Shown piece by piece: positions 20,684 through 63,958 of a stretch of 64,000 nucleotides of DNA; the stretch's first letter is position 1; each line of letters starts with the position of its first letter. The stretch covers positions 68,264-132,263 of the forward strand of contig JBGULC010000044.1 in assembly GCA_045114775.1 (NCBI GenBank), read 5' to 3'. The DNA is from Christensenellales bacterium (GTDB lineage Bacteria; Bacillota; Clostridia; Christensenellales; CAG-138). Position numbers and translations under genes: made by a program. The notes beneath the pieces were generated by a model. It worked only from the letters and a program-made list of their open reading frames with translations. It made no database searches and had not been told where the DNA came from.

Positions 20684-20686
20684 CGC

Positions 20687-25395: not shown

Positions 25396-25469
25396 TGGCT
25401 GCCGAACTAGGATTCGAACCTAGACAATACGAGTCAGAGTCGTAGGTGCTACCATTACACAATTCGGCA
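25396..25469 (-). tRNA. tRNA-Gln (anticodon CTG)
   Basis: Hand-folded 74 nt. Acceptor UGCCGAA/UUCGGCA, anticodon loop CUCUGAC, encoded CCA. Confidence 0.85.
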
Positions 25470-25665
25470 TTATCCCGAGAAAATCCCGCCGTGCCGTCCG
25501 CTTTGGGGTGATAAGACCCGCCTCTCAGGCAGGTGGGTACACTGCAGAGCCCGCAATCTTCCCGTCAAAGCGGGCTTGATTTTAGGTCGACCGACGCGTG
25601 CTTTCCCGTAATCACTCTGTGGGTTTATCACATAAAACGTAACGCACACCGCAGGATTTCCTGTA
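25470..25665 (-). ncRNA. Structured 196-nt RNA candidate between tRNA-Val and tRNA-Gln (6S-like rod, or an RNase III-type processing spacer)
   Basis: The 5' and 3' ends pair extensively: plus-strand 25643-25662 with 25474-25495, and 25621-25631 with 25508-25519. There is also an internal hairpin AGCCCGC..GCGGGCT. It abuts both tRNAs. Confidence 0.3.
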
Positions 25666-25742
25666 TGGTGGGGTTAGTTGGGCTCGAACCAATGACCTCC
25701 ACGATGTCAACGTGGCGCTCTAACCAACTGAGCTATAACCCC
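25666..25742 (-). tRNA. tRNA-Val (anticodon GAC)
   Basis: Hand-folded 77 nt. Acceptor GGGGUUA/UAACCCC, anticodon loop UUGACAU, encoded CCA. Confidence 0.9.
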
Positions 25743-25874
25743 TTGCGAAATCTTATTATACACATCCTGAGAAAAAATGCAAGTGTTTTTTTCAAATTTT
25801 CAAAATCTCCTTTCGTTTCTTTTTGTTTTGCGATTCAGCGAAGCATGTTTTATGCAGAAAAGCACATCTATTTC

Positions 25875-25903
25875 TTGCATTTTCAGATTCTCTATATTAT
25901 AAT
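25875..25903 (+). promoter_or_regulatory. Sigma-A-type promoter of the oxoamine synthase operon
   Basis: TTGCAT-17 nt-TATAAT in an AT-rich spacer. AAAGGAGG RBS at 25924. Confidence 0.6.
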
Positions 25904-25935
25904 ATTTGTCGGTATTTTTTTGAAAGGAGGATCCC

Positions 25936-40000: not shown

Positions 40001-41443
40001 CTTGCGGTCGACCTGATCGCGGAACGGCGTCGTATCGACGGTGACCGTCTGTGAGCTGTGCGTCTGTCCCGCCGGATCCTCTGCGTCGACGCGGAAGCAG
40101 AGCTTGCCGACGCCGTCGATCTGATAGGTCTGCGTAAAATAGGTATCGCCGCGCAAAAGCTCCGGATAGGACACGACCTCATGGAACAGGGTCGTTTCGG
40201 TCAGTACGGCTTTTTTGAGCCTGATGTCGCCGTAATAGCCGATCCGGAACTGGAACGCAACACAGAGCTTGCCGTTGCCGTCGAAGTAAGGCTTCTGCGG
40301 CTCGACGCGCAGCTCGATGCGCACGCCCTCCTGCTCGATATACGGCGTCACGCGGAAGGATTCGGGATCGGTAACGGTAACGGGCTTTAGAAGCGCATCC
40401 GTTCCGGTCGCATGGAAACGCACCGTGCGGATGACGTCCGCGGCGACGCCCGGCTTCACAACATAACGGATCGATTTCGTCTGATTCGCGGGCAGATCGA
40501 AGGGATTGTCGACGAGCGTATTGATCTCATCGTAGACACGGATGTCGGTAACCGTGCGGTTGCCGTTGTTTTTAACGGTGATGATGAACTCGGTCCCCGC
40601 TTCCGTTGCCGGGAACGCCTGTGTGGAGATCGATAGATCCACTGTGACGGAACCGACGCCGATCGCCGTCTCCGCGACCGTCGTGATGTTTCTGCGCCGC
40701 GCAACGTATTCGACCGTCGGGCGGAACGTCATATCCGTCACGCCCATCGTGTAGGTCACGGGCACGACCATCGTCCGTCCCGCGGTAAGCTCGTCGCTTG
40801 TGAGCGGGATCGACTGAAGCCCCTGCTCCGGATCGTAGAGCCGAAGCCCGGTCATATCGAACAGGGTGTCGTTTTTCAGCGTGTATTCGACGGTAAACGA
40901 ATCGCCGACCCGCACGAGCTCGTTCTCGCAGAAGGCGGAAACGGTCAACTCGGGCACGATAAACCGCTCGATCACGATGTTTGCGGAGGTTTCCCTGAAA
41001 TGCGTGATCGTAACGGCTTCGCCGGTCTCGTCGTCGATGAGCGCTTCGCCCGTTTCCTCGTCAAAAGCCGGTTCATGCTCCTCCCAGGAAAGCGTATAGG
41101 TCACGGGAACGTCAAGCTGATCCTCGGCGATGGGGACGTCGGAAAGCGTGAACTCCCGCTTGCCGCCCGCAAGGACCTCGATCTTCTCGTCGAGCGCGCG
41201 TTCGACGTCTTCATAGCCGCCGGAAAGCTTTGCGTTATACAGCGTATAGTCGGATTCGGAATCGTTGAAGATCGTGAAAAGCATGTCCGGCACGGTCCCT
41301 TCGCCCTCAAGTTCGGGCATCGGATCGACCGTGATCGAAAGCGTGATCGGATGCTCGCCCTCGGCAAAGCCGCCCGCGGGGACGATCGATGCCGGGAGCA
41401 GAAGCGCCAATATGCAGATCAGGATGACAATGCGTCGTTTCAT
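37073..41443 (-). CDS. Giant single-pass membrane protein: signal peptide, four Ig-like/CARDB-like modules, TM segment, and an approximately 930-aa disordered repeat-rich tail
   Basis: 1456 aa. Signal peptide MKRRIVILICILALLL, TM segment ILKLITVITLGVAAFCAIVCIVLYAF near residue 500, tail rich in P/E/T/A/R with tandem and segmental repeats. Confidence 0.75.
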   Translation of the reverse strand: MKRRIVILICILALLLPASIVPAGGFAEGEHPITLSITVDPMPELEGEGTVPDMLFTIFNDSESDYTLYNAKLSGGYEDVERALDEKIEVLAGGKREFTLSDVPIAEDQLDVPVTYTLSWEEHEPAFDEETGEALIDDETGEAVTITHFRETSANIVIERFIVPELTVSAFCENELVRVGDSFTVEYTLKNDTLFDMTGLRLYDPEQGLQSIPLTSDELTAGRTMVVPVTYTMGVTDMTFRPTVEYVARRRNITTVAETAIGVGSVTVDLSISTQAFPATEAGTEFIITVKNNGNRTVTDIRVYDEINTLVDNPFDLPANQTKSIRYVVKPGVAADVIRTVRFHATGTDALLKPVTVTDPESFRVTPYIEQEGVRIELRVEPQKPYFDGNGKLCVAFQFRIGYYGDIRLKKAVLTETTLFHEVVSYPELLRGDTYFTQTYQIDGVGKLCFRVDAEDPAGQTHSSQTVTVDTTPFRDQVDRKTDPVYVVTTNPYMQDLDAKYRGILKLITVITLGVAAFCAIVCIVLYAFERKIRSKLPGEFEEDMEKALRATKRRPDDPLFNDTPTERFGYRQPIKLRSYGELTDEEAKARRELYARGLAEDMRREGARPAARSAAQDTSVRIDGDGTRVLSAAKPDSMRTADGTRIMLTAKPGTAAYVRPAEPVTPRPKSDTGEFRRPTAEASEFARPAARRTEPVTPRPKGNTGEFRRPTAEASESGRPAARSAEETATFRRPAEPVTPRPKGNTGEFRRPTAEAAAFERPAARPTEDAAFRRPAEPVTPRPKGNTGEFRRPTAEAPAFERPAARTSDETVVFRRPVEPVATKPESARFAEPRSSERPAVVRTVMPRPKTEHEPAKPAAPAAERTFVVRTVSESGLRKTVEPSSFKGSDSSHGSEASHTLRDGVSLLHYVNGFDEPTSTVIPASAAAISAIAGEAKHDRDPIPEVSFKEIMPESEIVPETLADSVAAIQPAADESTAVQTIVDESAAAQPAAKESAAIQPAADESDAVQPVAEDSIICDQPTEGEIPEPDESPTERENPEASFTTVTDGTTPQSAEADNSPDKGRSDVGEVAVRETDTSTDPSIQPPFDEGGVDEQPTEGKIPESDASTQPPSDEGGVGEQPTEGETSEQTEALTEGESHEPIEALTEEEPPDPVEALTEEEPPAESPTAEEHKAFPIEEVPISFPIPTFLLRGIRLDSTAERAAAEALEKQPEDSDAEQETLDNTETTSCDESSDGDATDQPPVEGCVIDDQPTEGETPESDASTQLPLDEGDVCDQPTEGEIPEPEESPTEMENPEASFTTVTVETTPQSAEADSSPDKGSSEVGEGAVVETDTSTVPSIQPPSDEGGAGDQPTEGEISEQIETLTESETTDPVESPKEDETTDPAESPKEDETPDPTPDSADLTQDGNPPEPPPDSLPEPAFLRGGPRRIEAQPVPAKRPAERQSIWRMNR
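38990..39470. repeat. In-frame tandem repeats within the giant ORF (four units, periods 123/126/96 bp)
   Basis: The core GCTTCCGCNGTCGGTCTGCGGAAYTCGCCGGT recurs at 39051, 39174, 39300 and 39396. It encodes EPVTPRPKxxTGEFRRPTAEA. Confidence 0.9.
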
Positions 41444-50741: not shown

Positions 50742-51725
50742 CTATTCGTCCCCGCCGTCGCCGCCGTCCGAATCCCCCTCGCCGCCGTCGGAATCTTCCC
50801 CGTCGACGTCGTTTCCGATCACACCGTCAAACTCATTCTGCGCTTCTCCGAACTCCGAAGTCTCTGCGACCTCAGGCGCGTCGGGCATTTTCAGATCTTC
50901 CGGCGGTTCCGGCTCGGTTTCCGGATCGTGCAGGTCCGCTTTTGCGGATCGATCGGCGTTTTTACGCGTGCGGTACAGCGACAGCGCGACGAAGAACAGA
51001 AGAAGCACGATCAGAATGATCTGATTGAAGCGGACGTCGCCGAAGATGATCTGACGCGTGCTGCCGTCGCGCAGCCACTCAAGGATGAATTCCGCAAACA
51101 GGTAAACGATGACGGTGATCATCGCCGTTCTGCCCTTGGGGAGTTTTTTCGGCAGCAGCAATGCGGCGGTGCCGAGTCCCGCGCAGATCAGAAAATCGAG
51201 GAAGAACACGCTGTACGCCACGCTCCGATGATCGGTGAAATACTCTCTTGTGAACGTGACGAGCGGGAAGAACTTCGGGACGGATTCGCCGGCAAGCGCG
51301 CCGACGCCGTCGCAGAGGAAGAAATCCGACCACCGGCCGACCGCAAGGCCGAAGAACACGCCGGGCAGCAGGATCTCAAAGACCTCGTTCATATCCAGCT
51401 TTTTGATCCATGCGTAGACCGTGATCGCAGCGCCGGAGAACAGCAGCGCGCCTGGCAGGTTCAGGCCCGTATTCGCGAGCGAGAAAAACTGAGAAAAGGC
51501 GATCTTCCCGGACAGCGCGGCAAAAAGCCTTGCGCCGACAAGCCCCGCGAGGATCCCCGCAATGCAGGCGTCGAGCGCAAGATCCTTATATGCCTTGCGC
51601 TTTTTCACGAGGATCTCGGAAACGACGACAGCCGTTAAAATGCCGAGCGCGAGCATGATCGCGTTCCACGGGAGCACGAAGCTGCCGATGCTGAACGCCG
51701 TGTTGAATTGCTGATAGGATTCCAC
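50742..51725 (-). CDS. Prolipoprotein diacylglyceryl transferase (Lgt) family protein, divergent, with acidic C-terminal tail
   Basis: Blocks FSIGSFVLPW, GARLF, GLAVGRWSDFF and EFILEWLRDG align by eye with Lgt, but several catalytic positions differ. GTG start behind GGAGGAA. Confidence 0.5.
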   Translation of the reverse strand: MESYQQFNTAFSIGSFVLPWNAIMLALGILTAVVVSEILVKKRKAYKDLALDACIAGILAGLVGARLFAALSGKIAFSQFFSLANTGLNLPGALLFSGAAITVYAWIKKLDMNEVFEILLPGVFFGLAVGRWSDFFLCDGVGALAGESVPKFFPLVTFTREYFTDHRSVAYSVFFLDFLICAGLGTAALLLPKKLPKGRTAMITVIVYLFAEFILEWLRDGSTRQIIFGDVRFNQIILIVLLLFFVALSLYRTRKNADRSAKADLHDPETEPEPPEDLKMPDAPEVAETSEFGEAQNEFDGVIGNDVDGEDSDGGEGDSDGGDGGDE

Positions 51726-52016: not shown

Positions 52017-52045
52017 TTGAATTCGACGCCGGTATCGGTTATAAT
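52017..52045 (+). promoter_or_regulatory. Sigma-A-type promoter of the 11-gene lipid operon
   Basis: TTGAAT-17 nt-TATAAT. Confidence 0.65.
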
Positions 52046-52080
52046 GATAAATCATGATTTCGATTCTGTCGGAGAGTGCA

Positions 52081-54009
52081 ATGACGGATTATCATATCGG
52101 TTCCTATCGCAGCATCGACGCCTTTGTGCGCGACAAGCTCGGCGCCTTCAAAGAGGCCGGGTTTACGTTCCGTTCGCTCTTCGATCTGATGTTCCGCGAA
52201 GGGGACAACGTGCTTTGGGAGCGCAGCGAGGGCTACCGCATCCGCAAAACGACCTACGGCGAAGCGAAGACGCACATTCTGTCCCGCGCAGCCGCGCTGA
52301 AGGACGCGCTGAAGGGACTTCCCCACAATGCGGTCGTCGGGCTGTATCTCGACAACAGCCTCGACTGGATCGAGCTTTTCTGGGCGATCCTCGCCGCAGG
52401 GTTCCGTCCGCTTCTGATGAATCTGCGTCTGCCCGCGCCGCTTCTTTTGAGCGCCATGCGCACGGCGGACTGCCGGGCTGTCGTCGGCGACCGCGGCGAA
52501 TTCTCCTGCCCCGTGCTGCGGCCCGATGCGCTTTCCGTTGACGGCGCGCCGATCGAAGCGCAGCCGTTCGGCTCCGAGCTGCTCGTCATGTCCTCCGGCA
52601 CGACCGAGAACGTCAAGGTCTCGGCGTATTCCGCGGAGGAATTCTACTTCCAGATCTGCGACAGCTACGGCATCATCCGGGAGCAGCCGATGATCAAGCA
52701 GCACTACGAGGGCAATCTGAAGCTTCTGACGTTCCTGCCGTTTTACCACGTGTTCGGGCTGATCGCGATGTATATCTGGTTCGCGTTCTTCTCGCGCACG
52801 TTCGTGCAGCTCAACGATCTTGCGCCGTCGACGATCGTGAACACGGTCCGCCGCCACAAGGTCACGCACATCTTCGCCGTTCCGCTCTTCTGGGAGCGCG
52901 TATACGAACAGGCGAAAAAAGGGATCGCCGACCGGGGCGAAAAGACCGCGGCGAAGTTCGAACGCGCGCTTGCGCTTCAGCAAAAGCTGCCCGCGGCGCT
53001 CGGACGGGCGTTTGCGAAGGCGGCGTTTCGCGAGGTGCGCGAGAATCTGTTCGGCGAATCCGTGCTGTTCATGATCTCGGGCGGCAGCTTTCTGGATCCC
53101 GACGCGCACGCGTTTTTCAACGGGATCGGCTACCCGCTCGCGAACGGCTACGGCATGACCGAGATCGGCATCACCTCGGTCGAGCTTTCGTTCCAAAAGA
53201 AATACCTGCGATCCGGCAGCGTCGGAAAGCCGATGCACAGCGTCGAATACCGGATCAACGCGGACGGCGAGCTTGAGGTCAAGGGACTCGTCACCGCAAA
53301 ATACATCCTGACCGCGGACGGCATGACCGGGCGGCACGGCTGGTTCAACACGCACGATCTCGCTGCCTGCATCGACGGGCATTACCGGATCCTCGGCCGG
53401 ACGGACGATCTGATCGTCGGACCGGACGGCGAAAACCTGAACCCGAACGCGATCGAACCGCTCCTGAAAACCGACGGCGCCGAGGTCTGCCTGATCCCCT
53501 GCAGCGACGGCGGAAAGCCCGCGACCGTGCTGCTGTGCGGCGTGAACCGCATGACGACGAAGGAGACCGCGGAGCGCATCCTCGCTTCGCTCAGGGAACG
53601 GATCGAAGGTCTGCGTCTCTCCCCCGCGATCTCAAAGATCGCGCTCGTCGAGGGTCCGCTGATGAAGGCCGACGAATTCAAGCTGAACCGCATCCGGCTC
53701 CGGCGCGACTACGCCTCCGGCGCGCTGAAGCCGCTCGATCTTTCCCGGGAGCACGGGGACGAAGCGCTTGACGCGCTGACGGCGCGGGTCCGCGCGATCG
53801 TGGCGCAGGCGACGAACCGCGACGAAACGGAGATCGCGCCCGACGCCGATTTCTTCCTCGATCTCGGAGGCACGAGCCTCGACTGGTTCGCCATGCTGAC
53901 GCGTCTGCGCGACGAGTTCGGCGCTGCGTTCCCGCTCGAGGAAACGAACCTCAAAACCGTGCGGAGCATCGTCGGATACATCCGCGCGGAGAAAGGCGGT
54001 TCGCTTTGA
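52081..54009 (+). CDS. Fatty-acyl-AMP ligase / adenylation enzyme fused to a C-terminal carrier-protein (PP-binding) domain
   Basis: AMP-binding motifs SSGTTENVK and GWFNTHDL..GRTDD. C-terminal DLGGTSLDWF phosphopantetheine-site motif. The start is either 52081 (GGAGAG RBS) or 52054 (near-leaderless). Confidence 0.8.
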   Translation: MTDYHIGSYRSIDAFVRDKLGAFKEAGFTFRSLFDLMFREGDNVLWERSEGYRIRKTTYGEAKTHILSRAAALKDALKGLPHNAVVGLYLDNSLDWIELFWAILAAGFRPLLMNLRLPAPLLLSAMRTADCRAVVGDRGEFSCPVLRPDALSVDGAPIEAQPFGSELLVMSSGTTENVKVSAYSAEEFYFQICDSYGIIREQPMIKQHYEGNLKLLTFLPFYHVFGLIAMYIWFAFFSRTFVQLNDLAPSTIVNTVRRHKVTHIFAVPLFWERVYEQAKKGIADRGEKTAAKFERALALQQKLPAALGRAFAKAAFREVRENLFGESVLFMISGGSFLDPDAHAFFNGIGYPLANGYGMTEIGITSVELSFQKKYLRSGSVGKPMHSVEYRINADGELEVKGLVTAKYILTADGMTGRHGWFNTHDLAACIDGHYRILGRTDDLIVGPDGENLNPNAIEPLLKTDGAEVCLIPCSDGGKPATVLLCGVNRMTTKETAERILASLRERIEGLRLSPAISKIALVEGPLMKADEFKLNRIRLRRDYASGALKPLDLSREHGDEALDALTARVRAIVAQATNRDETEIAPDADFFLDLGGTSLDWFAMLTRLRDEFGAAFPLEETNLKTVRSIVGYIRAEKGGSL

Positions 54010-54647
54010 TCGCCGCGTTCAACTGGTTTGTGAAGATCACAGGCTGGCCGGTGCAGCTGCTGTGCTTCCGCACGAAGATCCTCTATGAGGACAAACGCGC
54101 GCAGGTGCGGCATATCAAGGGGCCCGCGATCGTCATTTCGAACCACACGTCGGTCTTTGACTACGCGGTGTACCTGTTCGTGTTTTTCAGCCGGACGCTG
54201 CGCTTTCAGATGGCCGAACTGCTGTTCGAAAAGCCCGGGCTCGGGCTGCTTCTGAAATGTCTCGGCGGGATCCGCGTCGACCGCGGCGCGCACGATTTCG
54301 GCTTTATGCCGAAGTCCGAACGGATCCTCGAACGCGGCGGCGTGGTCGGGATCTTCCCGGAAAGCCGCCTGCCGCTGCCCGGCGAGACGCGTCCGCTGCC
54401 CTTTAAGGTGAGCGCGGCGTATCTGGCGCTTACAAGCGGCGCGAAGATCGTTCCGGTCGTGACGAACGGCTCGTATTTCAGCCGGAAGCGCGCACGCGTG
54501 TTGATCGGCAAACCGCTGTACGCCGCCGATCTTCTGGAGGACGGCGCGGACGAGAACGAAAACCTCAGGATCGTTTCCGAACGGCTGAGAGAACGCATCA
54601 TGGAATTGGAGAAGCTGCTCAATGGAACAGAAACCGAAACGCGCTAA
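54006..54647 (+). CDS. Lysophospholipid/glycerolipid acyltransferase (PlsC/LPLAT family), copy 1
   Basis: HX4D motif NHTSVFD and FPESR block. TTG start overlapping the upstream stop (TTGA). Confidence 0.8.
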   Translation: MIAAFNWFVKITGWPVQLLCFRTKILYEDKRAQVRHIKGPAIVISNHTSVFDYAVYLFVFFSRTLRFQMAELLFEKPGLGLLLKCLGGIRVDRGAHDFGFMPKSERILERGGVVGIFPESRLPLPGETRPLPFKVSAAYLALTSGAKIVPVVTNGSYFSRKRARVLIGKPLYAADLLEDGADENENLRIVSERLRERIMELEKLLNGTETETR

Positions 54648-55278
54648 GCTGTTTTCGCTGCGATACCTCGTCTTCGACTTCGTCAAGGCGTCCGCGGCGA
54701 TCCCCGGCATGGTCTGGCTGAGGCCGCGCTGGCGGTTCGAGTCGAAGGCCGCGCGGAAGTTCATCCGCGGCGGCGCGCTCGTCATCGCGAATCACGCCGG
54801 ATTTTTCGATCCGATCAACGTGATGTTCGCGATCTGGTACCGGCGGCACCACTTCGTCTGCGGGCAGGAGTTCTTCGAATCGAAGGCCCGCTGGTGGTTC
54901 AAGCAGTTCATGTGCATCCCGATCGACCGGAAGAACTTCAATTTCGGCTCGCTCCGGGAGATCACCGACGAGCTCAAGGCGGGCTCACTCGTGTCCATCT
55001 TTCCGGAGGGGCACATCAACGACGGCAGCGGCGACCTTGCGGCGTTCAAGTCCGGTCCGGTGTTGATCGCACTGCAGGGCAAGGTCCCGATCATTCCGGT
55101 TTACGTGCGGCCCAAAAAGCGCTTCTGGAACCGCGTGACCTTCGTGATCGGCGAGCCGATCGACCTCTATCAGCGGTACGGCAGACGCCCGCCGATGTCC
55201 GAGATCGACGCGATCGCCGACGAGCTGCATCAAAAGGAAGAAGAATTAAAGCAAATCGCTTATCAAAAGAGGAGATAA
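54622..55278 (+). CDS. Lysophospholipid/glycerolipid acyltransferase (PlsC/LPLAT family), copy 2
   Basis: HX4D motif NHAGFFD and FPEGH block. 26-nt overlap with copy 1. Confidence 0.8.
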   Translation: MEQKPKRAKLFSLRYLVFDFVKASAAIPGMVWLRPRWRFESKAARKFIRGGALVIANHAGFFDPINVMFAIWYRRHHFVCGQEFFESKARWWFKQFMCIPIDRKNFNFGSLREITDELKAGSLVSIFPEGHINDGSGDLAAFKSGPVLIALQGKVPIIPVYVRPKKRFWNRVTFVIGEPIDLYQRYGRRPPMSEIDAIADELHQKEEELKQIAYQKRR

Positions 55279-55282
55279 CACT

Positions 55283-56797
55283 ATGCTGACACCATCCAAA
55301 GAGATCTTCCGTAAGTACACGGACGAACAGACCTTCGAACGCATCAAAGAGTTCACGACCGTTTCCGCAATGTGGGAACACTGCATTGCCGAATATGCCG
55401 ACGCGCCCGCGATCGTGGACGAGGGTAAGGCGCACACCTTTGCGGAGCTCGACGCAGACGTCGCTGGATTCCGCGCGCTTTTGGGCGACAGTCCGATCGG
55501 CACGCGCGTCGCGCTGTTTGCGGCGAATTCCTACGACTTCGTGAAGGCGTATCTCGCGGCTGTGACCTCGGGATATACCTGCGCGATCTTCCCGGCGCAT
55601 CTTCCGGCGGAAGCCGTGTTCGGCTGCTGCATGATGTTCGGGATCAAAAAGCTCATCTATCAGGCGGACTTCGAGGAGCGTCTCGCGATCGTCAAGGCAA
55701 AGCGCCCGGACATCGCGCTGATCCGCGCGGACGCGCTTTCCGACGAGAAGAAGCCGATCGTCTCCTGCGAGCCGAAGACGCCCTGCGCGATCGTCTTTAC
55801 GGGCGGCACGACCGGCAAGAGCAAGGGCGCGCTTCTTTCGAACGACGCGGTCATGCAGGGCACGATCAACGGCTGCTACGGCTACCCCGACGTGTTCGGT
55901 CAGCGCTACCTGCTCGTGCTGCCGCTTTCGCACGTGTTCGGGCTCATCCGAAACCTGATGACCTCGCTCTACACCGGCAGTGCGCTGTATATCTGCCGCA
56001 ACAATAATGATATGTTCCGCGACGTCGCGATCTTCAAGCCGACGATCCTCGTCATCGTGCCCGCACTCGCCGAAATGGCGCTGACGCTCTCGAAGAAGTT
56101 CGGCCGCAACATGCTCGGCGCGGACCTCAAGACGATCATCTGCGGCGCGGCGCCGGTGTCGCCGTATCTCATCACGGAATACGACAAGCTCGGCATCAAG
56201 CTGCTGCCCGGTTACGGTCTCACCGAGTCCGCGAACCTCGTTTCCGGCAACCCGGAAAGCCTCCGGAAGAGCGATTCCGTCGGCGTTCCGTTCCCGAATC
56301 AGGAGTTTAAGATCGTCGACGGCGAGCTTTGGCTCAAAGGCCGCAACATGATGGAAGGCTACGTCGGCGTCGAAGAGCCCGGCGCATATGAGGACGGATG
56401 GTTCAAGACCGGCGACCTCGTCCGCATCGACGACGAGGGCTACCTCTACATCACCGGACGCATCAAGGAGATCATCGTGCTCCCGAACGGCGAGAACGTC
56501 TCCCCAGCGGAGGTCGAGGTGCATTTCAACGCGCTCCCGTTCATTCAGGATTCGCAGGTCTTCGAAAGCCGCAGCGCGCTCGGCGAGCCGATCCTCGCGC
56601 TCGAGGTCGTGCTGCGTCCGACCGAGCTCACAAACATGGACGACGAAGCGCGTAAGGCGTTCGCCGTTTCCGAGCTTGAAAAGGTCAACCGCACGCTGCC
56701 CGGCTTCATGCAGGTCAGCCGGATCGAAGTCCGCGACACCGACTTCCAGCGTTCCCCGGCGATGAAGATCGTGAGGTATAAGAATGTCCAGAACTGA
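55283..56797 (+). CDS. Long-chain fatty acid-CoA/ACP ligase (AMP-binding family)
   Basis: FTGGTTGKSKG, YGLTE and GWFKTGDL..GRIKE motifs. 504 aa. Confidence 0.85.
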   Translation: MLTPSKEIFRKYTDEQTFERIKEFTTVSAMWEHCIAEYADAPAIVDEGKAHTFAELDADVAGFRALLGDSPIGTRVALFAANSYDFVKAYLAAVTSGYTCAIFPAHLPAEAVFGCCMMFGIKKLIYQADFEERLAIVKAKRPDIALIRADALSDEKKPIVSCEPKTPCAIVFTGGTTGKSKGALLSNDAVMQGTINGCYGYPDVFGQRYLLVLPLSHVFGLIRNLMTSLYTGSALYICRNNNDMFRDVAIFKPTILVIVPALAEMALTLSKKFGRNMLGADLKTIICGAAPVSPYLITEYDKLGIKLLPGYGLTESANLVSGNPESLRKSDSVGVPFPNQEFKIVDGELWLKGRNMMEGYVGVEEPGAYEDGWFKTGDLVRIDDEGYLYITGRIKEIIVLPNGENVSPAEVEVHFNALPFIQDSQVFESRSALGEPILALEVVLRPTELTNMDDEARKAFAVSELEKVNRTLPGFMQVSRIEVRDTDFQRSPAMKIVRYKNVQN

Positions 56798-57035
56798 GAT
56801 CATCGACAAGCTCAAGGAGATCCTTCTTGCGGCGGACGACCGCAACCGCGACAAGGTGCTCGCCTGCACCGAGGGCTCGAAGCTCGTCGCCGACCTCGGC
56901 TTCTCGTCGGTCTCCATGCTCTATATGGTCATCGCGATCGAGGAGGAGATGGGCATCCGCTTCGACAACGTCGGCGCGTCCGATTTTGAAACACTCGGCG
57001 ACGTCGTGACCTATATCGAGGCGAAGCTCAAATGA
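56784..57035 (+). CDS. Stand-alone acyl carrier protein
   Basis: 83 aa. DLGFSSVSMLYMV serine-site helix. Overlaps both neighbouring genes. Confidence 0.75.
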   Translation: MSRTEIIDKLKEILLAADDRNRDKVLACTEGSKLVADLGFSSVSMLYMVIAIEEEMGIRFDNVGASDFETLGDVVTYIEAKLK

Positions 57036-58072
57036 AATGGCAGCCCGGCGAGCCGGTCCCCGGCGATATGGTGCGGGTGCAGATCGGTTCGATCTTCCAT
57101 TACGGGATCTATACGGGCGACGATCGGATCGTTGCGTTCGGTCTGCCGCCCGTGTCGGAGCATGCAAATGCGCCGGACCGGTTTCTGGTAACGGAAACGG
57201 ACATGGACGTGTTCTGCACCGGACGCATCCCGGAGATCGCGGTCCTCGACCGCGCGGAGCGCAGAAAGCGCATCCCGCCGGAGGAAACCGTGCGGCTTGC
57301 AAAAAGCAGGCTCGGCGAAGACGGGTATCATCTGATCCGCAACAACTGCGAGCACTTCGTGAACGAGTGCGTGTTCGGCGAGAAGAAGAGCCTCCAGGAG
57401 GAGGCGATGTTCCGGATGTGGAACACAAGGCCGGTCATCAACGTCTACCTTTCCGAGGCCGACCGGTTCACGCTTGACTTCCCCGTCCCCGCGGAGCGGC
57501 GCTCGGAGATCGACGCCTGCTCCGATGCTTCGATGAAGCGCGCGCGGATCGCAAACTGGGCGCTGCTGCGGCTTGCCGCGCGGCACGGTTTTTCGCTCGA
57601 TCCGGACGAGGTCGTCTTTTCGCGCAAAAAGCACGGCGGCTGGACCGCGGACCGTTTTTTCTGTTCGTTTTCACACGCCGACGGGCTCTGCTGCGTCGCG
57701 GTCTCGAACGCGCCGATCGGCGTCGACTTTGAAACGGTCGAGGATTTTTCACGCAGGCTCGACGCGCAGAAGCTTCAAAAGCTTCGCGCGCAGTGCTTCA
57801 CCAAGGCCGAACGGGACGCGTACCCGGATTCGATCGAAAGCTTTCTCATCTGCTGGACGCGGAAGGAAGCGATCTTCAAGCAGACCGGAAAGCGCGCGTT
57901 CTCGCCCGGCGCGATCGAAACGCGCACCGGCGCTGCCATGACGTACAGACTCGACGAACCGAAGCGGGCGGTCCTCTCCCTTTGCGGGGAGTACGCCGGT
58001 CTTGCGCGGTTTTACCGGACGGACGGAAACGAGATCACGCCCCTTTGGGCGGAAGGACCTTTGGACCTGTAG
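57032..58072 (+). CDS. Fusion protein: LRAT/PLAAT (NlpC/P60-type Cys-His acyltransferase) domain plus Sfp-type 4'-phosphopantetheinyl transferase domain
   Basis: N-terminus carries HYGIY and NNCEHFVNEC (LRAT hallmark). C-terminus carries FSFSHAD, GVDFE and WTRKEAIFK (PPTase motifs). Confidence 0.75.
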   Translation: MKWQPGEPVPGDMVRVQIGSIFHYGIYTGDDRIVAFGLPPVSEHANAPDRFLVTETDMDVFCTGRIPEIAVLDRAERRKRIPPEETVRLAKSRLGEDGYHLIRNNCEHFVNECVFGEKKSLQEEAMFRMWNTRPVINVYLSEADRFTLDFPVPAERRSEIDACSDASMKRARIANWALLRLAARHGFSLDPDEVVFSRKKHGGWTADRFFCSFSHADGLCCVAVSNAPIGVDFETVEDFSRRLDAQKLQKLRAQCFTKAERDAYPDSIESFLICWTRKEAIFKQTGKRAFSPGAIETRTGAAMTYRLDEPKRAVLSLCGEYAGLARFYRTDGNEITPLWAEGPLDL

Positions 58073-58081
58073 GAGGACGGT

Positions 58082-59020
58082 ATGCTTTGGATCCCGGCAG
58101 CTTTGATCGGATGCTACGCGGTTTTCGTGATCGGACCCGCGATCGCTGCCGTCTGCACGATCTTCAAGGCATTGCCCGGCTCTCCGCTCGAACGAATGCT
58201 CGAACCGGACGCGCAGCTTTACCCGTTCCGCGAACGCATCCTTGCGGCGAAGCGCGCGCTCGACGCGCTGCCGGACGCGAACGTCACGGTCACGGCGCGG
58301 GACGGGATCGCGCTGTCGGGACGGTATTACGATCTCGGCAAGCCGAAAACGGCGATCTTTGTGCACGGATACCGCACGCAGCCGGAGGTCAACTTCACCG
58401 AACAGGCGGAGGCGTTCGCCCGGCACGGCTACAATCTGCTTCTGATCCGTCAGCGCGGACACGAGCCCGGCTCGCACGTTCGGTGCGGCATGGGACTCAG
58501 AGAGCGGTACGACGCCGCGGCGTGGAACGATTGGGCGCTCTCGCAAAACGGCGTCGAAGAAACCGTGCTGTACGGTGTTTCGATGGGCGCAGCGACGGTC
58601 GGGTTTGCGGCTTCTCTGGTCGATCCGGCGCGCACAAAAGCGCTGTTTCTCGACTGCGGCTTTCGCTCGCCGTATGAGCAGATCTCGCTCGACTGCAGGC
58701 GGCATCACATTTCGCCGTTTGTGCTGATGCCTTGGATCCGGCTGTTCGCGCGGATCTTTCTGAAGCTCGACATCCGCGAACGCACGGACGACGCGCTGCG
58801 GCGCACCGCGATCCCCTGCTTCTTCCTGCACGGAACGGAGGACAGGACCGTACCGTATGAGACCGGCCGCGCGGTCTATGAAGCCTGCGGCGCACGAAAG
58901 GCGTTTTTCACCGCGCGCGGCGCAAGACACGCAGAATCGTATCTTTCCGACCCCGACCGGGCGGAAGACGAGATATTTACGTTCCTCGGGGAGGAACACA
59001 CAGAAGGAAACCAACTTTAG
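58082..59020 (+). CDS. Membrane-anchored alpha/beta hydrolase (paralog 2)
   Basis: N-terminal TM segment, GVSMGA nucleophile elbow, C-terminal HG.ED and H blocks. Confidence 0.8.
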   Translation: MLWIPAALIGCYAVFVIGPAIAAVCTIFKALPGSPLERMLEPDAQLYPFRERILAAKRALDALPDANVTVTARDGIALSGRYYDLGKPKTAIFVHGYRTQPEVNFTEQAEAFARHGYNLLLIRQRGHEPGSHVRCGMGLRERYDAAAWNDWALSQNGVEETVLYGVSMGAATVGFAASLVDPARTKALFLDCGFRSPYEQISLDCRRHHISPFVLMPWIRLFARIFLKLDIRERTDDALRRTAIPCFFLHGTEDRTVPYETGRAVYEACGARKAFFTARGARHAESYLSDPDRAEDEIFTFLGEEHTEGNQL

Positions 59021-59034
59021 GAGGACAACTGAAA

Positions 59035-59969
59035 TGGCAAAATTTGTGATCCTTTGCGACGGTACCTGCGATCTGCAGGAGAACTTTCAGAAGGAATACG
59101 ACATCCGGGTCATCCCGGGACACATCGTGCTGCCCGACAAGTCGGACGTGCCCGGCCCGCTGAAGTGGGACCGCTTCTCGCGCGATGAGTTTTATGCCGA
59201 TCTCAAGAAGAATCCGAACGGCTACGCAACCGCGCCCGCCAATACCGAGGAGTTCCGCCGCGCGATGGAAGAGATCGTGAAGGACGGCACGCCGCTGCTC
59301 GTTCTGACCATCTCCGCCGGCATGAGCGGAACCTACGACTTTGCCTGCACCGCAGCGAAAACGGTGAAGGAAACCTATCCCGACGCGGATATCCGCTGCA
59401 TCGACACGCTGCGCTTCGGTCCCGGCTTCGGCCTGATGGCGGTGCACGCTTCCATGCTGCGCGAAGAAGGCAAGACGATGGAAGAGGTCGCGGCATGGCT
59501 CGAGGAGAATAAAAACCGGTTCCATCAGGCGGGCTGGCTCGACGACCTGAGCTTCGTCGCAAAGAAGGGTCGTCTGACCAACGCGAAGGCGTTCTTCGGC
59601 ACGCTCGCGGGCATCAAGCCGATCGGCGAGTTCGACTACAACGGCATGACGACCGTCATCGGCAAGGCGAAGGGCGCAAAGGCCGCCTACGCCGCGCTGC
59701 TCGAATACGTCGAAAAGACCGGCGAGGATCTTTCCGAACAGATCCTGTTCATCGCCCAGACCAACCGCATGGCGCAGGCCGAGAAGTACAAGGAGCTTCT
59801 TGCGGAGCGTTTCCATCCGAAGGCGATCTATATCAACGACGTCTTCCCCTCCTGCGGCATCAACGTCGGCCCGGGTCTCATGGCGGTCTACTACATGGGC
59901 AAGCCGATCTCCAAGGACCTCTCCGAAGAACGCGCGATCATTGAAAAAGCGCTTGCAAACGCAAAATAA
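59035..59969 (+). CDS. DegV/FakB-family fatty-acid-binding protein
   Basis: MAKFVILCDGTCDL N-terminus and TISAGMSGTY block typical of DegV. 311 aa. Confidence 0.85.
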
Positions 59970-60000
59970 GATTCCCTTTTAGGGGTGAAAGGAATCCGAA

Positions 60001-61341
60001 ATGAGAAAACTGACAAAAAAATGGCAGATGTTCCTGTACGCCATCGGCGGCATGGGCGTCAACATGCTGAACCTGATGGTCAGCTCGTACCTGTGCAGCG
60101 CGATCATCGCGAGCGGGTTCAATCCGAACGTCATTCAGTACCAGACTTTCCTTCAGCGCGACCTCGTCATTGCAGGGGTATGGGCAGTGTTCGGCGTTGT
60201 TGCGAAGATCATCGACGGCGTGATCGACGTCCCGATGGCGTCGTTTACGGATAATCTGAAGACGAAGTTCGGTCGCAGACGTCCGGCGCTCATCATCGGT
60301 CTCGTGCCGATGATTCTCGCCTACGTGCTGTTCTCGCTCGTCACGCCCAATCCGGACGGCGCGACGCTCGGAAACACGATCTACTACGGCATCACGCTGT
60401 GCGTGTTCTACAGCTTCTATACGCTGACAATGGTCACGTACTACGCGACCTTCACGGAGATCGTCGACTGTCAGGAGGACCGCAACTTCATGTCGAACGT
60501 CAAGTCGGTCTGCGACATCCTCTACTTCATCCTGGGGTACGTCGTGGTCCGCATGTTCCTGAACGGTTTGAACATCCGTTTCGTCGCCATGCTGGTGCTG
60601 CCGATCGTTCTGACGATGATGATCCCGCTGTTCCTGATCCGGGAAAGCTCGACCAAGGACGGCGTCATCCTTCGCGATGGCGATGAGAAATCCGTTTCGG
60701 TCAATCTGTTCAAGTCGATCGCGTATACGTTCAAGAACAAGAATTATATTCTTTGGATGATCGTGTATTCGTTCATGACCTTCGGCGTGCAGCTCTTCCT
60801 GTCCGGTATCAACGAGTATTTCTCAGTCGCCGGCATGAACATGATGCTCGTCATGATGGCGTCGTTTGCACCGGTGCCGTTCACGCTGCTGATCTACAAC
60901 TGGCTGACGCGGAAGTTCGGCTTCGGCTTCTCTTACCGCTATACGCTCGTGATCTTTGCCGTCGGCATGGCGGCGATGTTTGCGGTTTCGTTCCTCCCCG
61001 CGGGAACGCCGAAAACCGTACTTTCGATCGTAACGGGTCTCATCTCCTCGTTCGGCATCGGCGCAATGTTCTCCGTTGCGTATTCCGTGCCGTCCGAGCT
61101 TGCCGCCGAAGAGGAAAAGCGCACCGGCGTCTCGAACGCCGCAATGTACTTTGCGGTGCAGGGACTTTTCGCGGGCGTCGCGTCCGGCATCGGCGGACAG
61201 GCGGTTCTGACGTGGATGAAAACGGCCGACGTCGTAAAGTACATGACGCTCGTCTGCGCGATCGCTGTGCTCGCCGCGTTCCTGCTGTCCTTTATGCTGC
61301 CGAAGTCCGTTACCTTGATGGGCAAGAAGGAATCGAAGTAA
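60001..61341 (+). CDS. MFS transporter, MFS_2/GPH family (MelB/Mfsd2a/LplT-like)
   Basis: 12 TM segments. DGVIDVPMASFTDNLKTKFGRRRP loop signature. Confidence 0.8.
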   Translation: MRKLTKKWQMFLYAIGGMGVNMLNLMVSSYLCSAIIASGFNPNVIQYQTFLQRDLVIAGVWAVFGVVAKIIDGVIDVPMASFTDNLKTKFGRRRPALIIGLVPMILAYVLFSLVTPNPDGATLGNTIYYGITLCVFYSFYTLTMVTYYATFTEIVDCQEDRNFMSNVKSVCDILYFILGYVVVRMFLNGLNIRFVAMLVLPIVLTMMIPLFLIRESSTKDGVILRDGDEKSVSVNLFKSIAYTFKNKNYILWMIVYSFMTFGVQLFLSGINEYFSVAGMNMMLVMMASFAPVPFTLLIYNWLTRKFGFGFSYRYTLVIFAVGMAAMFAVSFLPAGTPKTVLSIVTGLISSFGIGAMFSVAYSVPSELAAEEEKRTGVSNAAMYFAVQGLFAGVASGIGGQAVLTWMKTADVVKYMTLVCAIAVLAAFLLSFMLPKSVTLMGKKESK

Positions 61342-61345
61342 ACCG

Positions 61346-62986
61346 ATGGCAGTCAAACGAATCAACGGAACCGAATTAGAACAGATGCTCAGAAACGGGC
61401 TCGTCAATCTTCGCGCGGAAGAGGACGAGATCAACCGTCTGAACGTCTTCCCCGTCCCCGACGGCGACACGGGCACCAACATGGTGAAAACGCTGGAGCA
61501 CGGGCTGAATCAATCCGAAAGCAGCGCGGAAGTCAACGTCTTCGTGAAATCGCTCGCCTCCGGAATGCTCCTCGGCGCGCGCGGAAACTCGGGCGTCATC
61601 CTCTCGCAGTTTTTCAACGGCTTTGCGCAGGGTCTTTCCCGTTCCGTTCTGATCGGTCCGGGCGAGCTTCGAAACGCGCTCGTGCGCGGGTATCGCGTCG
61701 CGTATTCCGCCGTGCAGAAGCCGGTCGAGGGAACGATCCTCTCCGTTGCACGCGAGGGCATCGAGCACATCCGCGGACAGATCACCCGCACCTCCACGAT
61801 CGACTTTATCCTCTCTGCGTACGTCGCCGAAATGCACAAGACGCTGATTTTGACGCCGGAAATGCTTCCGGTGCTGAAGGACGCGGGCGTCGTCGATTCC
61901 GGCGCGACCGGCTTTATCCGCATCTTTGAGGGGATGATCAAGTATCTGCGCGGCGAGATCCTGGAGGATCTTGCACCGAAAGCGGAGCCCGAAAAAGCGC
62001 CTAAAGCGGACCTCAGTCTGTTCAACGAAAACAGCCTGTTTATCGACGGCTACTGCACGGAATTCATCCTGCAGCTGATGAACGGCGCGTCCTACGATCA
62101 GGATTTCCGGCTGAAAGCCTTCATCGGCGCGCTCGACCGTCTCGGCGACTCGCTGGTCTGCGTACAGGACGGCAAACGCGTCAAGGTGCATATTCACACG
62201 AAAGCGCCCGCGTTCGTCATTCAGCTCGCGCAGCAGTACGGCGAGTTTCTGACCTTCAAGCTCGAGAACATGCAGGTCCAGCACAACGAGCGCGACCGCA
62301 TCCTGAAGCCGCGGGTGCATAAGCCTCTGTCCGTCGTGGCTGTCGTCAACGGCGCGGGCATGAAAACGCTGTTCGAGAACCTCGGCGCAGATTGTGTGAT
62401 CGACGGGACCGCGACCATGAACACCTCTTCGCAGGAGTTCGTGTCCACCTTCGAATCGCTCGACGCCGACCGCATCGTCGTGCTGCCGAACAACAAGAAC
62501 GTCATCCTGGCAGCCGAGCAGGCTGCGAAGCTCGTTTCGGATAAAAACGTGACCGTTCTGCCCTCGAAGAGCTTTGTCGAGGGATATTACGCGATCGCGA
62601 TGGACGTGCCGACCGAACCGGATCTCATGAAGCGGATCGAGAGCATGCGCTCCGGCATCGAAAACGTCGTCACGCTCAGCGAAACGACCGCATCGCGCGA
62701 TTACGCGTACCACGAGATCCGCTGTAAGAAAGGCGAAGAGATCGCCTTCCTGTCCGGCGAGCTTGTCTGCGTCAACAGCGATTACAAGGACGCGATCTTA
62801 GGCGCGCTTTCGATGATCGAGGACATCGACGACCGCGAGACCGGCATTGTGCTGCGCGGCAAGGGCGTCTCGGCGGACGACGAGGAAGCGCTTTCGGAGG
62901 CGGTGTCCGAGCGGTATCCGATGCTCGAGCTCGAGTTTATCGACGCCGGGCAGGAGATCTACCACTGGGTCGTCGGCATCATGTGA
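61346..62986 (+). CDS. fakA: DAK2-domain protein, fatty acid kinase FakA/YloV family
   Basis: N-terminal DhaL motif PDGDTGTNM. 546 aa with a DegV-like C-terminal half. Confidence 0.75.
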   Translation: MAVKRINGTELEQMLRNGLVNLRAEEDEINRLNVFPVPDGDTGTNMVKTLEHGLNQSESSAEVNVFVKSLASGMLLGARGNSGVILSQFFNGFAQGLSRSVLIGPGELRNALVRGYRVAYSAVQKPVEGTILSVAREGIEHIRGQITRTSTIDFILSAYVAEMHKTLILTPEMLPVLKDAGVVDSGATGFIRIFEGMIKYLRGEILEDLAPKAEPEKAPKADLSLFNENSLFIDGYCTEFILQLMNGASYDQDFRLKAFIGALDRLGDSLVCVQDGKRVKVHIHTKAPAFVIQLAQQYGEFLTFKLENMQVQHNERDRILKPRVHKPLSVVAVVNGAGMKTLFENLGADCVIDGTATMNTSSQEFVSTFESLDADRIVVLPNNKNVILAAEQAAKLVSDKNVTVLPSKSFVEGYYAIAMDVPTEPDLMKRIESMRSGIENVVTLSETTASRDYAYHEIRCKKGEEIAFLSGELVCVNSDYKDAILGALSMIEDIDDRETGIVLRGKGVSADDEEALSEAVSERYPMLELEFIDAGQEIYHWVVGIM

Positions 62987-62995
62987 GGTAACGGT

Positions 62996-63958
62996 ATGCT
63001 TTGGTTATGGATCGTACTCGGCGTGCTCGGCTTCGCCCTGCTTTCCGGGATCATTATGACGCTGATCATTGCGTGGATCATTTACGCCACGCTCTTAAGG
63101 CGCAATAGGCCCGGCAAATGGGACCGCGGCATCAGCTTTCCGGAGGACGAAGAATACTGCCGGATGCACGACATCGGCATTGCGTGGGGCGAGAAGTATC
63201 GCGATCGCATCCGCGAGGTCACGGTCACGAGCGACGGGCTGAAGCTTGTCGGCGAATACTTCGATTTCGGCGGGAAGTCCGCTGCGCTGATCATTGCGGG
63301 ACGCACGGAATGCCTGCTGTATTCCTATTTCTTCGCCGAACCGTTCCGCCGCGCGGGACGCAACGTTCTTGTGATCGACAACCGCGCGCACGGTCTTTCC
63401 GAAGGTAAGGTGAGCTGTCTGGGGTATCGCGAATACCGCGATATCCTCGAATGGTGCAGGCTCTTGCACGACGATCTCGGCAACGAACGCGTGTTTTTGC
63501 ACGGGATCTGCATCGGCTCCTCCACCGCGCTCTTTGCGCTGACCGCGCCGGAGTGTCCCGACTACATCGAAGGCATGTCCTGCGAGGGCATGTACATGAC
63601 CTTCTATCGGTCGTTCGACAGGCACATGGACCTCGACCGACCCGAGAAGAAAAAGTTCCCGGTCGTACAGGAGGTCATGCTGTGGATCCGGCTTTGCTCG
63701 CATGCGAACGTCGTGACCGACGGGCCTTATAAGCGCATTGAGAAGCTCAGAAAGCCCATTCTGTTCCTCCACAGCCGCGAGGATCCCTATTCCACTCCGG
63801 ACCAGGCGGAATACCTCTACGCGCACTGCAGCGCGCCGAAAAAACTCGCGTGGTTCCCGCACGGCGCGCATTCGCGCATCCGCATCAACGATATGGCGAA
63901 TTACGACGATGCGATCGTCGGATTTCTGCATGAGCTTGACAAAAAAGCCGAGGAGTAA
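62996..63958 (+). CDS. Membrane-anchored alpha/beta hydrolase (paralog 3) with Cys at the nucleophile elbow
   Basis: N-terminal TM segment. The elbow reads GICIGS (GxCxG) instead of GxSxG. Shares the MLW start and RBS context with paralog 2. Confidence 0.75.
   Translation: MLWLWIVLGVLGFALLSGIIMTLIIAWIIYATLLRRNRPGKWDRGISFPEDEEYCRMHDIGIAWGEKYRDRIREVTVTSDGLKLVGEYFDFGGKSAALIIAGRTECLLYSYFFAEPFRRAGRNVLVIDNRAHGLSEGKVSCLGYREYRDILEWCRLLHDDLGNERVFLHGICIGSSTALFALTAPECPDYIEGMSCEGMYMTFYRSFDRHMDLDRPEKKKFPVVQEVMLWIRLCSHANVVTDGPYKRIEKLRKPILFLHSREDPYSTPDQAEYLYAHCSAPKKLAWFPHGAHSRIRINDMANYDDAIVGFLHELDKKAEE

Follow-up and report, generated by a model that had tools for sequence, protein, structure and literature searches.

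We analysed a stretch of 64,000 nucleotides from a Christensenellales bacterium (assembly GCA_045114775.1, contig JBGULC010000044.1, positions 68,264 to 132,263 of the forward strand), hereafter the window, and describe eleven consecutive + strand open reading frames (ORFs), g1 to g11, that span its positions 52081-63958. They are one tightly packed chromosomal operon, which appears to be undescribed so far, and we believe, with a little more confidence than doubt, that it constitutes a self-sufficient system for carrier-dependent fatty-acid salvage and for the acylation and acyl editing of membrane lipids. Assignment of domains with Pfam and NCBIfam profiles gives the following order: an adenylating enzyme with a carrier domain, two acyltransferases, a ligase, an acyl carrier protein (ACP), an LRAT domain fused to a phosphopantetheinyl transferase (PPTase), a hydrolase, DegV, a major facilitator superfamily (MFS) transporter, FakA and a second hydrolase. 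An earlier note, made from the sequence alone, had listed the same content; the domains that it named are found by the profiles, but its order is not that of the genes, the two hydrolases being genes 7 and 11 and FakA gene 10.

Operon organization and conservation

The coding sequences are closely coupled. Four junctions overlap, namely g1/g2 (TTGA at 54006-54009, the TTG start of g2 overlapping the g1 stop), g2/g3 (26 nt), g4/g5 (14 nt) and g5/g6 (ATGA), and the remaining genes are separated by gaps of 4 nt (g3/g4 and g9/g10), 9 nt (g6/g7 and g10/g11), 13 nt (g7/g8) and 31 nt (g8/g9), the last being the widest of the operon. For g8, the start is the ATG at 59034, preceded by a ribosome-binding site (RBS), and the longest-ORF start at 58857 is not used. 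The start of g1 is most likely the ATG at 52081 (MTDYH..., 642 aa, RBS GGAGAG at 52071-52076) and not the upstream ATG at 52054, because the latter runs into a stop in a related locus (L001) and the homologues are 641-643 aa long.

A sigma-70-type promoter, TTGAAT-17-TATAAT (52017-52045, + strand), agrees with the consensus at 10 of 12 positions and is the sole + strand promoter-like match between 51500 and 64000. Both strands together give 4 matches in this interval, against 3.1 ± 1.7 in shuffled sequence, which is not above chance; the call is therefore based on the location of the site in the sole real intergenic gap and not on the number of matches. The -35 and -10 hexamers are also kept in two related loci, L001 and L081. 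A perfect palindrome of 12 nt, AAATCATGATTT (52049-52060), lies just 3′ of the -10 box, where transcription is expected to start; it is partly kept as AATCATGATTTCG in L001 and as AATCATGGTTTTCG in L081, and may be a repressor operator. Terminator-like sites occur at the chance level (18 against 14 ± 4), with none at the gene junctions, and no Rfam match to a riboswitch or leader RNA was obtained at E ≤ 1 between 48000 and 64000. Division of the operon by internal terminators or promoters was considered and rejected, the scan having given no credible site. As to other upstream motifs, many loci of the Ruminococcus type (see below) have GTC[GA]AA, often as TGTCGAAAAAG, a few bases 5′ of a -35 TTGAAA (L009, L011, L013, L018, L025, L040, L046, L052 and L053 are among the carriers); with 20 of 61 loci against an expectation of ~16%, and most of them from one clade, this is too weak to be claimed as a regulator motif.

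To see how far the arrangement is shared, one genome per GTDB species (~185,000) was scanned with g6 as query. Relatives were found in 288 of these species-level genomes, and the best 80 of the 288 loci were compared with the eleven window proteins by tblastn. All 80 belong to metagenome-assembled genomes (MAGs) of Clostridia, sampled from the rumen or other gut sites of ruminants or from the gut of humans, mice and birds. The full order g1-g11 recurs down to ~35-45% identity, and conserved synteny down to ~30-45%, in MAGs of Ruminococcus, Oscillospiraceae, Lachnospiraceae, Saccharofermentans, Christensenellaceae and Acutalibacteraceae, and the same arrangement is seen on the pre-annotated contigs of two homologues. 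Relatives of g6 also exist in gut lineages with reduced genomes, e.g. Ca. Onthoplasma and Ca. Pelethenecus. Gene presence was counted in the 38 loci that have both 10-kb flanks, where the LRAT domain is present by construction: g2 and g3 are found in 38/38, g5 in 37/38 and g1 in 36/38, followed by DegV (g8) and FakA (g10) in 30/38 each, g11 in 29/38, g4 in 27/38, g7 in 19/38 and g9 in 12/38. Since g1, g2, g3 and g5 are nearly constant, they make up, with the LRAT domain, the core of the system, the Fak genes and g11 being frequent partners.

The genes that flank this core vary by lineage. Loci of the Ruminococcus type are without g9 and have a shortened g6, and core-only loci consist of g1-g6 alone. 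In the Oscillospiraceae type (L026 and L029), g8-g11 are relocated upstream, g7 is absent, and a gene for a patatin-like phospholipase (PF01734 + DUF6363; 5920-6855 in L026, also in L029) is inserted between g11 and g2. The Acutalibacteraceae/Faecousia type has g1-g2-g3-g5-LRAT, with FakA-DegV-DegV and g11 divergent nearby, so FakA and DegV remain linked to the core even when they are inverted; two DegV genes beside FakA are present in some relatives. A minimal variant, L066, has a gene of the polysaccharide-deacetylase family (PF01522 + DUF3473, 4994-5875) between g11 and g1.

Much of what the earlier note had said on layout is thus borne out: eleven same-strand genes follow one promoter, the four overlaps are at the positions that it gave with all other gaps at 31 nt or less, and close coding coupling together with conserved synteny argues for one unit. 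The domain profiles and the search of gene neighbourhoods, which it had suggested as a check, confirmed the domains of the proteins and recovered the gene order in dozens of species-level genomes.

Acyl activation and the two carriers

The first gene, g1 (52081-54009), encodes an adenylating enzyme (PF00501, E 7e-35) with a C-terminal carrier (T/ACP) domain (PF00550, E 2e-13). In orthologues translated from the 80 loci and aligned to the window proteins, as for all residue counts below, the carrier serine (Ser608, in LGGTSL) is present in 64/64. The adenylation domain is very divergent; it shares 26% identity with g4 and has an extra segment (VPLFWERVYEQ...) between the core motifs, which we take to be typical of long-chain ligases of the ACSL/FadD11 type. 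Its top NCBIfam matches include NF038343 (FadD11). The product of g4 (55283-56797) is a stand-alone adenylate-forming ligase of class I of the ANL superfamily (PF00501, E 5e-55) with the canonical motifs TGGTTGKSKG, GYGLTE, TGD and GR, and its closest relatives in the PDB are acyl- and feruloyl-CoA synthetases and FadD13, with oxalyl- and malonyl-CoA ligases also among the best. It matches the synthetase part of the Aas-type model NF005291 with E 3e-29. Against the Aas equivalog models NF005291, NF005959 and NF006386, g1 and g4 score at most 101 bits where the cut-offs are 886-1349, and their relation to the Aas synthetase is, by these scores, one of superfamily level only.

The second carrier is encoded by g5 (56784-57035), a stand-alone and divergent ACP that matches the NCBIfam ACP models with E 7e-11, below their cut-offs. 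Its PF00550 score is 20.0 bits (cut-off 20.8), it reaches no more than 42 bits with the ACP equivalog models (cut-offs 66-106), and its serine motif is GFSSV and not DSL. The serine itself, Ser42, is found in 77/77 orthologues, and in the related loci g5 is always placed directly 5′ of the LRAT gene. We class g5 as a carrier protein and not as a canonical AcpP.

The LRAT-PPTase fusion protein

The protein encoded by g6 (57032-58072) combines a PLAAT/LRAT-like Cys domain (residues ~1-125; PF04970, E 2e-17, 64.1 bits for a cut-off of 24.3) with an Sfp-type PPTase (~135-346; PF01648, E 5e-9, 36.7 bits for a cut-off of 25). Its N-terminal ~120 residues match human PLAAT3/HRASLS with E 2e-7 and its C-terminal part matches Sfp with E 2e-3. 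The AF2 model, built on an alignment with 46 homologues, has a pLDDT of 92.9, and in Foldseek searches its N-domain retrieves PLAAT2/3/4 with TM-scores of 0.7-0.8 (0.78-0.80 for PLAAT3), while the C-terminal half retrieves AASDHPPT, Sfp and PptT over ~220 columns with E 3e-10 to 1e-4. In the N-domain, the NNCEH motif with Cys106 is kept in 44/44 orthologues and His23 in 42/44; at the position of the second His of the triad, 28 have Gln, 13 Ala and 2 Glu, and the window protein has Ala. No hydrophobic segment that could serve as a membrane anchor was found in g6 by Kyte-Doolittle analysis, and the C-terminus is the PPTase. The PPTase motifs GVDxE (GVDFE) and WTRKEAxFK (WTRKEAIFK) are present and conserved in the full-length homologues.

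The two halves differ in their persistence. In the 282-aa versions from Ruminococcus (e.g. P0068, P0091 and P0109; L011, L013, L018 and similar loci), the first PPTase lobe is kept and the second, which bears WTRKE, is deleted; the remaining C-terminal part looks like a degenerate PPTase remnant and possibly serves as a carrier-docking domain. In Acutalibacteraceae and Faecousia the PPTase is gone and a 135-aa LRAT protein is all that is left. Because the PPTase half is shortened or absent in these lineages, we regard the LRAT domain as obligatory and the PPTase as optional.

Acyltransferases and membrane-tethered hydrolases

Two paralogues with 28% identity, g2 (54006-54647; PF01553, E 2e-17) and g3 (54622-55278; PF01553, E 3e-19), belong to the PlsC acyltransferase superfamily. 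Their HX4D motifs are invariant, H47 and D52 of g2 being found in 69/69 orthologues and H58 and D63 of g3 in 74/74. The best NCBIfam match of g3 is the lysophospholipid acyltransferase (LPLAT) region of the Aas-type model NF006386 (E 4e-21), the second-best match of g2 is likewise an Aas-type LPLAT domain, and g3 also matches TmPlsC (5kym, E 1e-7). With the PlsC model TIGR00530, g2 scores 51.2 and g3 68.9 bits, which is below the cut-off of 102.95.

A second pair of paralogues, again with 28% identity, consists of the alpha/beta hydrolases g7 (58082-59020) and g11 (62996-63958), both matched by PF12146 and PF00561. By Kyte-Doolittle analysis each has one N-terminal transmembrane segment (residues 7-25 in g7), there being none in g2, g3 and g6 and about 11 in g9. 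The Ser-Asp-His triad of g7 (GxS167MG, D254 and H283) is found in 45/45 orthologues. In g11, which is similar to monoacylglycerol lipases, the elbow is GxCxG (GICIG) instead of the GxSxG of such hydrolases: C172, D263 and H292 are present in 47/47 orthologues and in all 39 further database homologues, and Cys172 is aligned with the Ser of GFSMG in the esterase 5g59. In the AF2 model of g11 (pLDDT 93.7), residues 2-34 form an N-terminal helix, and the folds nearest to this model in Foldseek are the PF2001 esterase and monoacylglycerol lipases, i.e. Ser enzymes. By its conserved residues, g11 is a Cys and not a Ser enzyme. Since RRNRPGK follows its transmembrane helix, the positive-inside rule would place the catalytic domain of g11 in the cytoplasm, and the catalytic domains of both hydrolases are probably cytoplasmic. 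In a relative with 67% identity (L081/L082), g11 is followed by an ORF of 100 aa and by another alpha/beta hydrolase, the third of that locus.

The Fak pair and the transporter

The DegV/FakB-type fatty-acid-binding protein g8 (59034-59969; PF02645, E 2e-57) scores 201 bits with TIGR00762, above the cut-off of 99.7, and 96 bits with the FakB1 equivalog model, whose cut-off is 350. Its partner g10 (61346-62986), the ATP-binding subunit FakA of a fatty acid kinase, has the Dak2, FakA-like_M and FakA-like_C domains, all above cut-off (PF02734, 116 bits; PF21645, 83 bits; PF13684, 185 bits).

Between them lies g9 (60001-61341), an MFS_2 (GPH-like) transporter (PF13347, E 4e-25) for which the Pfam and NCBIfam matches are confined to MFS_2/MFS_1 and a weak one to TIGR00792 (gph). 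At E ≤ 0.01 it is matched by no model of the LplT type, phmmer finds no relative in the PDB, and a profile search there returns plant SUC1 only (E 1e-4). Homology to LplT, MFSD2A or MelB was rejected, no relation being seen by phmmer or profile; for this reason a label such as lysolipid transporter would rest on context only. In L081 (12974-14668) and L082 (12942-14636), the MFS gene encodes 564 aa with extra Pfam matches to CLIPPER and CLIPPER_2.

Several further claims of the earlier note can be judged from these data. The carrier serines and the HX4D motifs, on whose integrity it had made its proposal depend, are intact in every orthologue aligned, the kinship of the acyltransferases with Aas-type LPLATs is supported, for g3 especially, and the PPTase half has both the fold and the motifs of Sfp. 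Its lysolipid-transporter reading of the MFS protein, on the other hand, finds no LplT, MFSD2A or MelB signal, for a gene that is found in 12/38 of the flanked loci. The note had overlooked the composition of the core, the dispensability of the PPTase half and the Cys nucleophile of g11. The two functions that it had proposed, host-lipid scavenging with reacylation and synthesis of a specialised multi-acyl lipid, both fit the sequence.

Proposed function and alternatives

A lipid theme is suggested by the Aas-type LPLAT matches, the FadD11 match, the lipase folds of g11, the patatin of one variant and the linked Fak genes. In the scheme that we prefer, of salvage and acyl editing, the PPTase half of g6 would convert both carriers to the holo form, g1 would adenylate a long-chain fatty acid and load it onto its own carrier domain, and g4 would activate a fatty acid and load it onto the free ACP, g5. 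Each of g2 and g3 would then transfer the acyl group from an acyl-S-carrier to a glycerol-based acceptor, either a lysolipid or glycerol-3-phosphate/lysophosphatidic acid (lyso-PA), much as Aas does. At the inner face of the membrane, g7 and g11 would deacylate or transacylate lipids, with further deacylation by the patatin of some variants, and FakB/FakA would turn released or imported fatty acids into acyl-phosphate. Acyl exchange through thioesters, among lipid, acyl-phosphate and carrier, would most plausibly be the part played by the LRAT domain and g11, both of them Cys enzymes; as the adjacency of ACP and LRAT is constant, the ACP is the likely partner of the LRAT domain. Where it is encoded, g9 may import or flip a lipid or fatty acid. 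The net result would be salvage of dietary or host lipids, with deacylation and reacylation of the membrane.

A more specific form of this scheme, which we offer as a possibility and do not consider probable, is an acyl-editing machine of the Lands-cycle kind that works on private carriers: the PLAAT-like Cys domain and the Cys hydrolase would swap acyl chains between membrane lipids, the acyl-phosphate from Fak and the dedicated ACP, and the two ligase/acyltransferase pairs would re-esterify them.

Several points weigh against the salvage and editing scheme. The substrates and the product of every enzyme are inferred from sequence. As g4 is a generic ANL enzyme with feruloyl-, oxalyl- and malonyl-CoA ligases among its relatives, its substrate may not be a fatty acid, and the scores of g2 and g3 below the TIGR00530 cut-off mean that their acceptor may not be lyso-PA. 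The transporter shows no relation to LplT/MFSD2A and is often missing, and PlsX and PlsY, the usual consumers of the acyl-phosphate made by Fak, are absent from the operon and the window. For the LRAT domain and g11, the proposed roles come from analogy only. Finally, the scheme does not explain why simple salvage should need private carriers and a PPTase.

A different reading is that the operon makes a specialised multi-acyl lipid. In its favour, private carriers with an Sfp-type PPTase are usual in dedicated biosynthetic clusters. Two activation/carrier pairs would bring different acyl groups, which g2, g3, the LRAT domain, g11 and g7 would assemble into a tri- or tetra-acylated glycolipid, a lipid of the acyl-phosphatidylglycerol or N-acyl-phosphatidylethanolamine type or some other envelope lipid, with Fak supplying precursors and the MFS protein exporting or flipping the product. 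The divergence of g5, which falls under the cut-offs for housekeeping ACPs, the scores of g2 and g3 under that for PlsC, and the patchy distribution (the 288 genomes above) all fit such a pathway, and the four or five acyl-transfer catalysts exceed the needs of simple reacylation. However, the cluster has no conserved gene that could build a head group (glycosyltransferase, amino-acid ligase, reductase or ketosynthase), the genes flanking the core differ by lineage, and lipases and Fak suit salvage better than de novo assembly. We regard this explanation as rather unlikely.

We think it more unlikely still that the operon performs the housekeeping acylation of phospholipids in Clostridia that are without type II fatty-acid synthesis (FASII) and auxotrophic for fatty acids. 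Here g5 and g6 would be the sole ACP and PPTase, g1/g4 and Fak the sole route to acyl donors, and g2/g3 the equivalents of glycerol-3-phosphate and lyso-PA acyltransferases. The gene set would indeed suffice to convert free fatty acids into a diacylated glycerolipid in the absence of FASII, PlsX and AcpS, and FakA, usually a single-copy housekeeping gene, is part of the operon. A Pfam scan of ~35 genes of the window detected none for FASII and neither plsX nor plsY, and relatives of g6 are present in the reduced-genome lineages Ca. Onthoplasma and Ca. Pelethenecus. But this view of FASII is confined to a 64-kb window, the scores of g2 and g3 under the PlsC cut-off speak against equivalence, and because many loci are without the PPTase half, g4 or g9, housekeeping equivalents must exist in those organisms. 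Least probable is a small-molecule cluster resembling those of non-ribosomal peptide synthetases, in which g1 and/or g4 would activate an amino, aryl or short-chain acid and the acyltransferases would build an ester or amide natural product with the lipid genes as accessories: the adenylation-carrier architecture of g1, its LGGTS motif like that of peptidyl and aryl carriers, its very divergent adenylation domain and the aryl- and dicarboxylate-CoA ligases among the relatives of g4 can be cited for it, but Pfam detects neither a condensation nor a reductase domain and no canonical thioesterase, the partners that persist are lipid enzymes without exception (PlsC-type acyltransferases, FakAB, a monoacylglycerol-lipase-like hydrolase, patatin), and g1 bears the long-chain-ligase insert.

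FakAB together with PlsX/PlsY/PlsC is the present explanation of how Firmicutes use exogenous fatty acids. If salvage and acyl editing are what the operon does, its conserved combination of Fak with adenylating enzymes, with private carriers and with acyltransferases of the Aas kind would mean that dietary and host lipids are handled differently in many uncultured Clostridia of rumen and gut. This would bear on rumen lipid metabolism (fatty-acid toxicity, biohydrogenation, milk fat), on cultivation, through a possible fatty-acid requirement, and on resistance to FASII inhibitors. The operon also offers testable enzymology in a bacterial PLAAT/LRAT domain genetically tied to an ACP and in a membrane-tethered alpha/beta hydrolase with a constant Cys nucleophile. 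Should the more specific acyl-editing form prove true, it would give a first functional role to a prokaryotic PLAAT/LRAT homologue, and to rumen and gut Clostridia a route to membrane remodelling with dietary fatty acids or to a new multi-acyl lipid.

Genomic surroundings

The GC content of the operon is uniform and the same as in the rest of the window, which also contains the housekeeping genes for FtsH, TilS and RNase G; the locus is native and part of the ordinary chromosome. Upstream lies a divergent Lgt gene (50742-51725). A link with lipoprotein acylation through this gene was rejected: Lgt and its 183-aa neighbour are beside the operon in 0/80 loci, and were found there only in the close relative L081/L082.

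Other parts of the window provide some separate observations. A TMEM164-family protein of 260 aa (PF14808, E 1e-28) is encoded at 23420-24202 on the - strand; human TMEM164 is an acyltransferase for ether phospholipids, and the protein would add one more unusual homologue of a lipid enzyme to this genome. A xanthine-dehydrogenase-like cluster at 19305-23155 (- strand) has molybdopterin-binding and FAD-binding subunits (Pfam) and an adjacent small ORF. An ORF of 1456 aa (37073-41443, - strand) has no Pfam match above cut-off, DUF7507 being found below threshold, and probably encodes a large surface or cell-wall protein. GC content dips to 0.48 at 24001-26000 and to 0.51 at 1-2000, compared with ~0.58-0.62 elsewhere, the former dip covering a 299-aa ORF (24423-25322, - strand) and a 600-nt gap.

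Comparison with known systems

In its logic the operon comes nearest to Aas/LplT combined with Fak. The Aas/LplT system of E. coli, treated as a Gram-negative system, consists of Aas, a fusion of 2-acyl-glycerophosphoethanolamine acyltransferase and acyl-ACP synthetase, and of LplT, an MFS flippase (PMC11416262). The operon resembles it in having a carrier-linked adenylate-forming ligase, an HX4D LPLAT and an MFS protein at one locus. Its functions, however, are on separate polypeptides, with ligase and acyltransferase both duplicated; its carriers are private, one fused and one free, with their own PPTase; its transporter is of the MFS_2 type without LplT signal; Fak, the PLAAT-like domain and two hydrolases are added; and its host belongs to a Clostridia lineage. 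Of the features that define Aas/LplT, the HX4D LPLAT is thus found, while a synthetase score at the level of Aas and an LplT-type MFS are not.

FakA/FakB is the fatty acid kinase of Firmicutes (PMC10848957). The operon shares with it a g10 that has all three FakA domains and a g8 that exceeds the DegV cut-off of TIGR00762; unlike the arrangement of Fak with PlsX/PlsY, the pair sits here among adenylating enzymes and carriers, with neither PlsX nor PlsY.

Enzymes of the PLAAT/LRAT group act via an acyl-Cys thioester. The N-domain of g6 has in common with vertebrate PLAAT/HRASLS/LRAT the fold (best seen with PLAAT3), the Cys of NCEHF and the first His. It differs from the vertebrate PLAATs in being bacterial, in lacking a C-terminal membrane anchor, in having Gln or Ala at the third triad position, and in its fusion to a PPTase and its place directly after the ACP gene. 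For a papain-like Cys enzyme with an acyl-ACP donor, BtrH provides a precedent (PMC10318531). The PPTase half shares with Sfp and AASDHPPT the two-lobe fold, aligned over ~220 columns with E 3e-10 to 7e-9, and the motifs GVDxE and W(T/S)xKEAxxK; unlike these enzymes it makes up the C-terminal part of a fusion protein, and its second lobe, or the whole domain, is lost in some versions.

SyrC and CmaE are alpha/beta hydrolases that use a Cys nucleophile to pass acyl groups from one carrier protein to another, and PHA synthases likewise have a Cys nucleophile. Going by the general description of SyrC and CmaE, the likeness of g11 consists of GxCxG with Asp and His in a locus with two carriers; g11 differs in that it is membrane-anchored and that the solved structures closest to it in fold are those of Ser esterases and monoacylglycerol lipases. 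Enzymes of the ElbD type of Myxococcus combine FAAL, ACP and AGPAT, and acyl-ACP synthetases of the ACSL type are known from cyanobacteria and plants; as far as their general description goes, they share with the operon a long-chain-type adenylating enzyme with a carrier and a PlsC-family acyltransferase. The operon has no reductase domain and occurs in another taxon with other partner genes.

The earlier note did not recognise the combination as a described pathway, and this agrees with our own search: the gene set was not found as a described pathway in the full-text literature searched, no description of an LRAT-PPTase fusion was found there, and the product names in databases are all generic (acyl-CoA ligase, 1-acyl-sn-glycerol-3-phosphate acyltransferase, LRAT family protein, alpha/beta hydrolase). 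Every building block is a known family; what is unusual is that a bacterial PLAAT domain is linked to an ACP and fused to a PPTase, that the nucleophile of a hydrolase is always Cys, and that Fak is coupled to adenylation and carrier chemistry.

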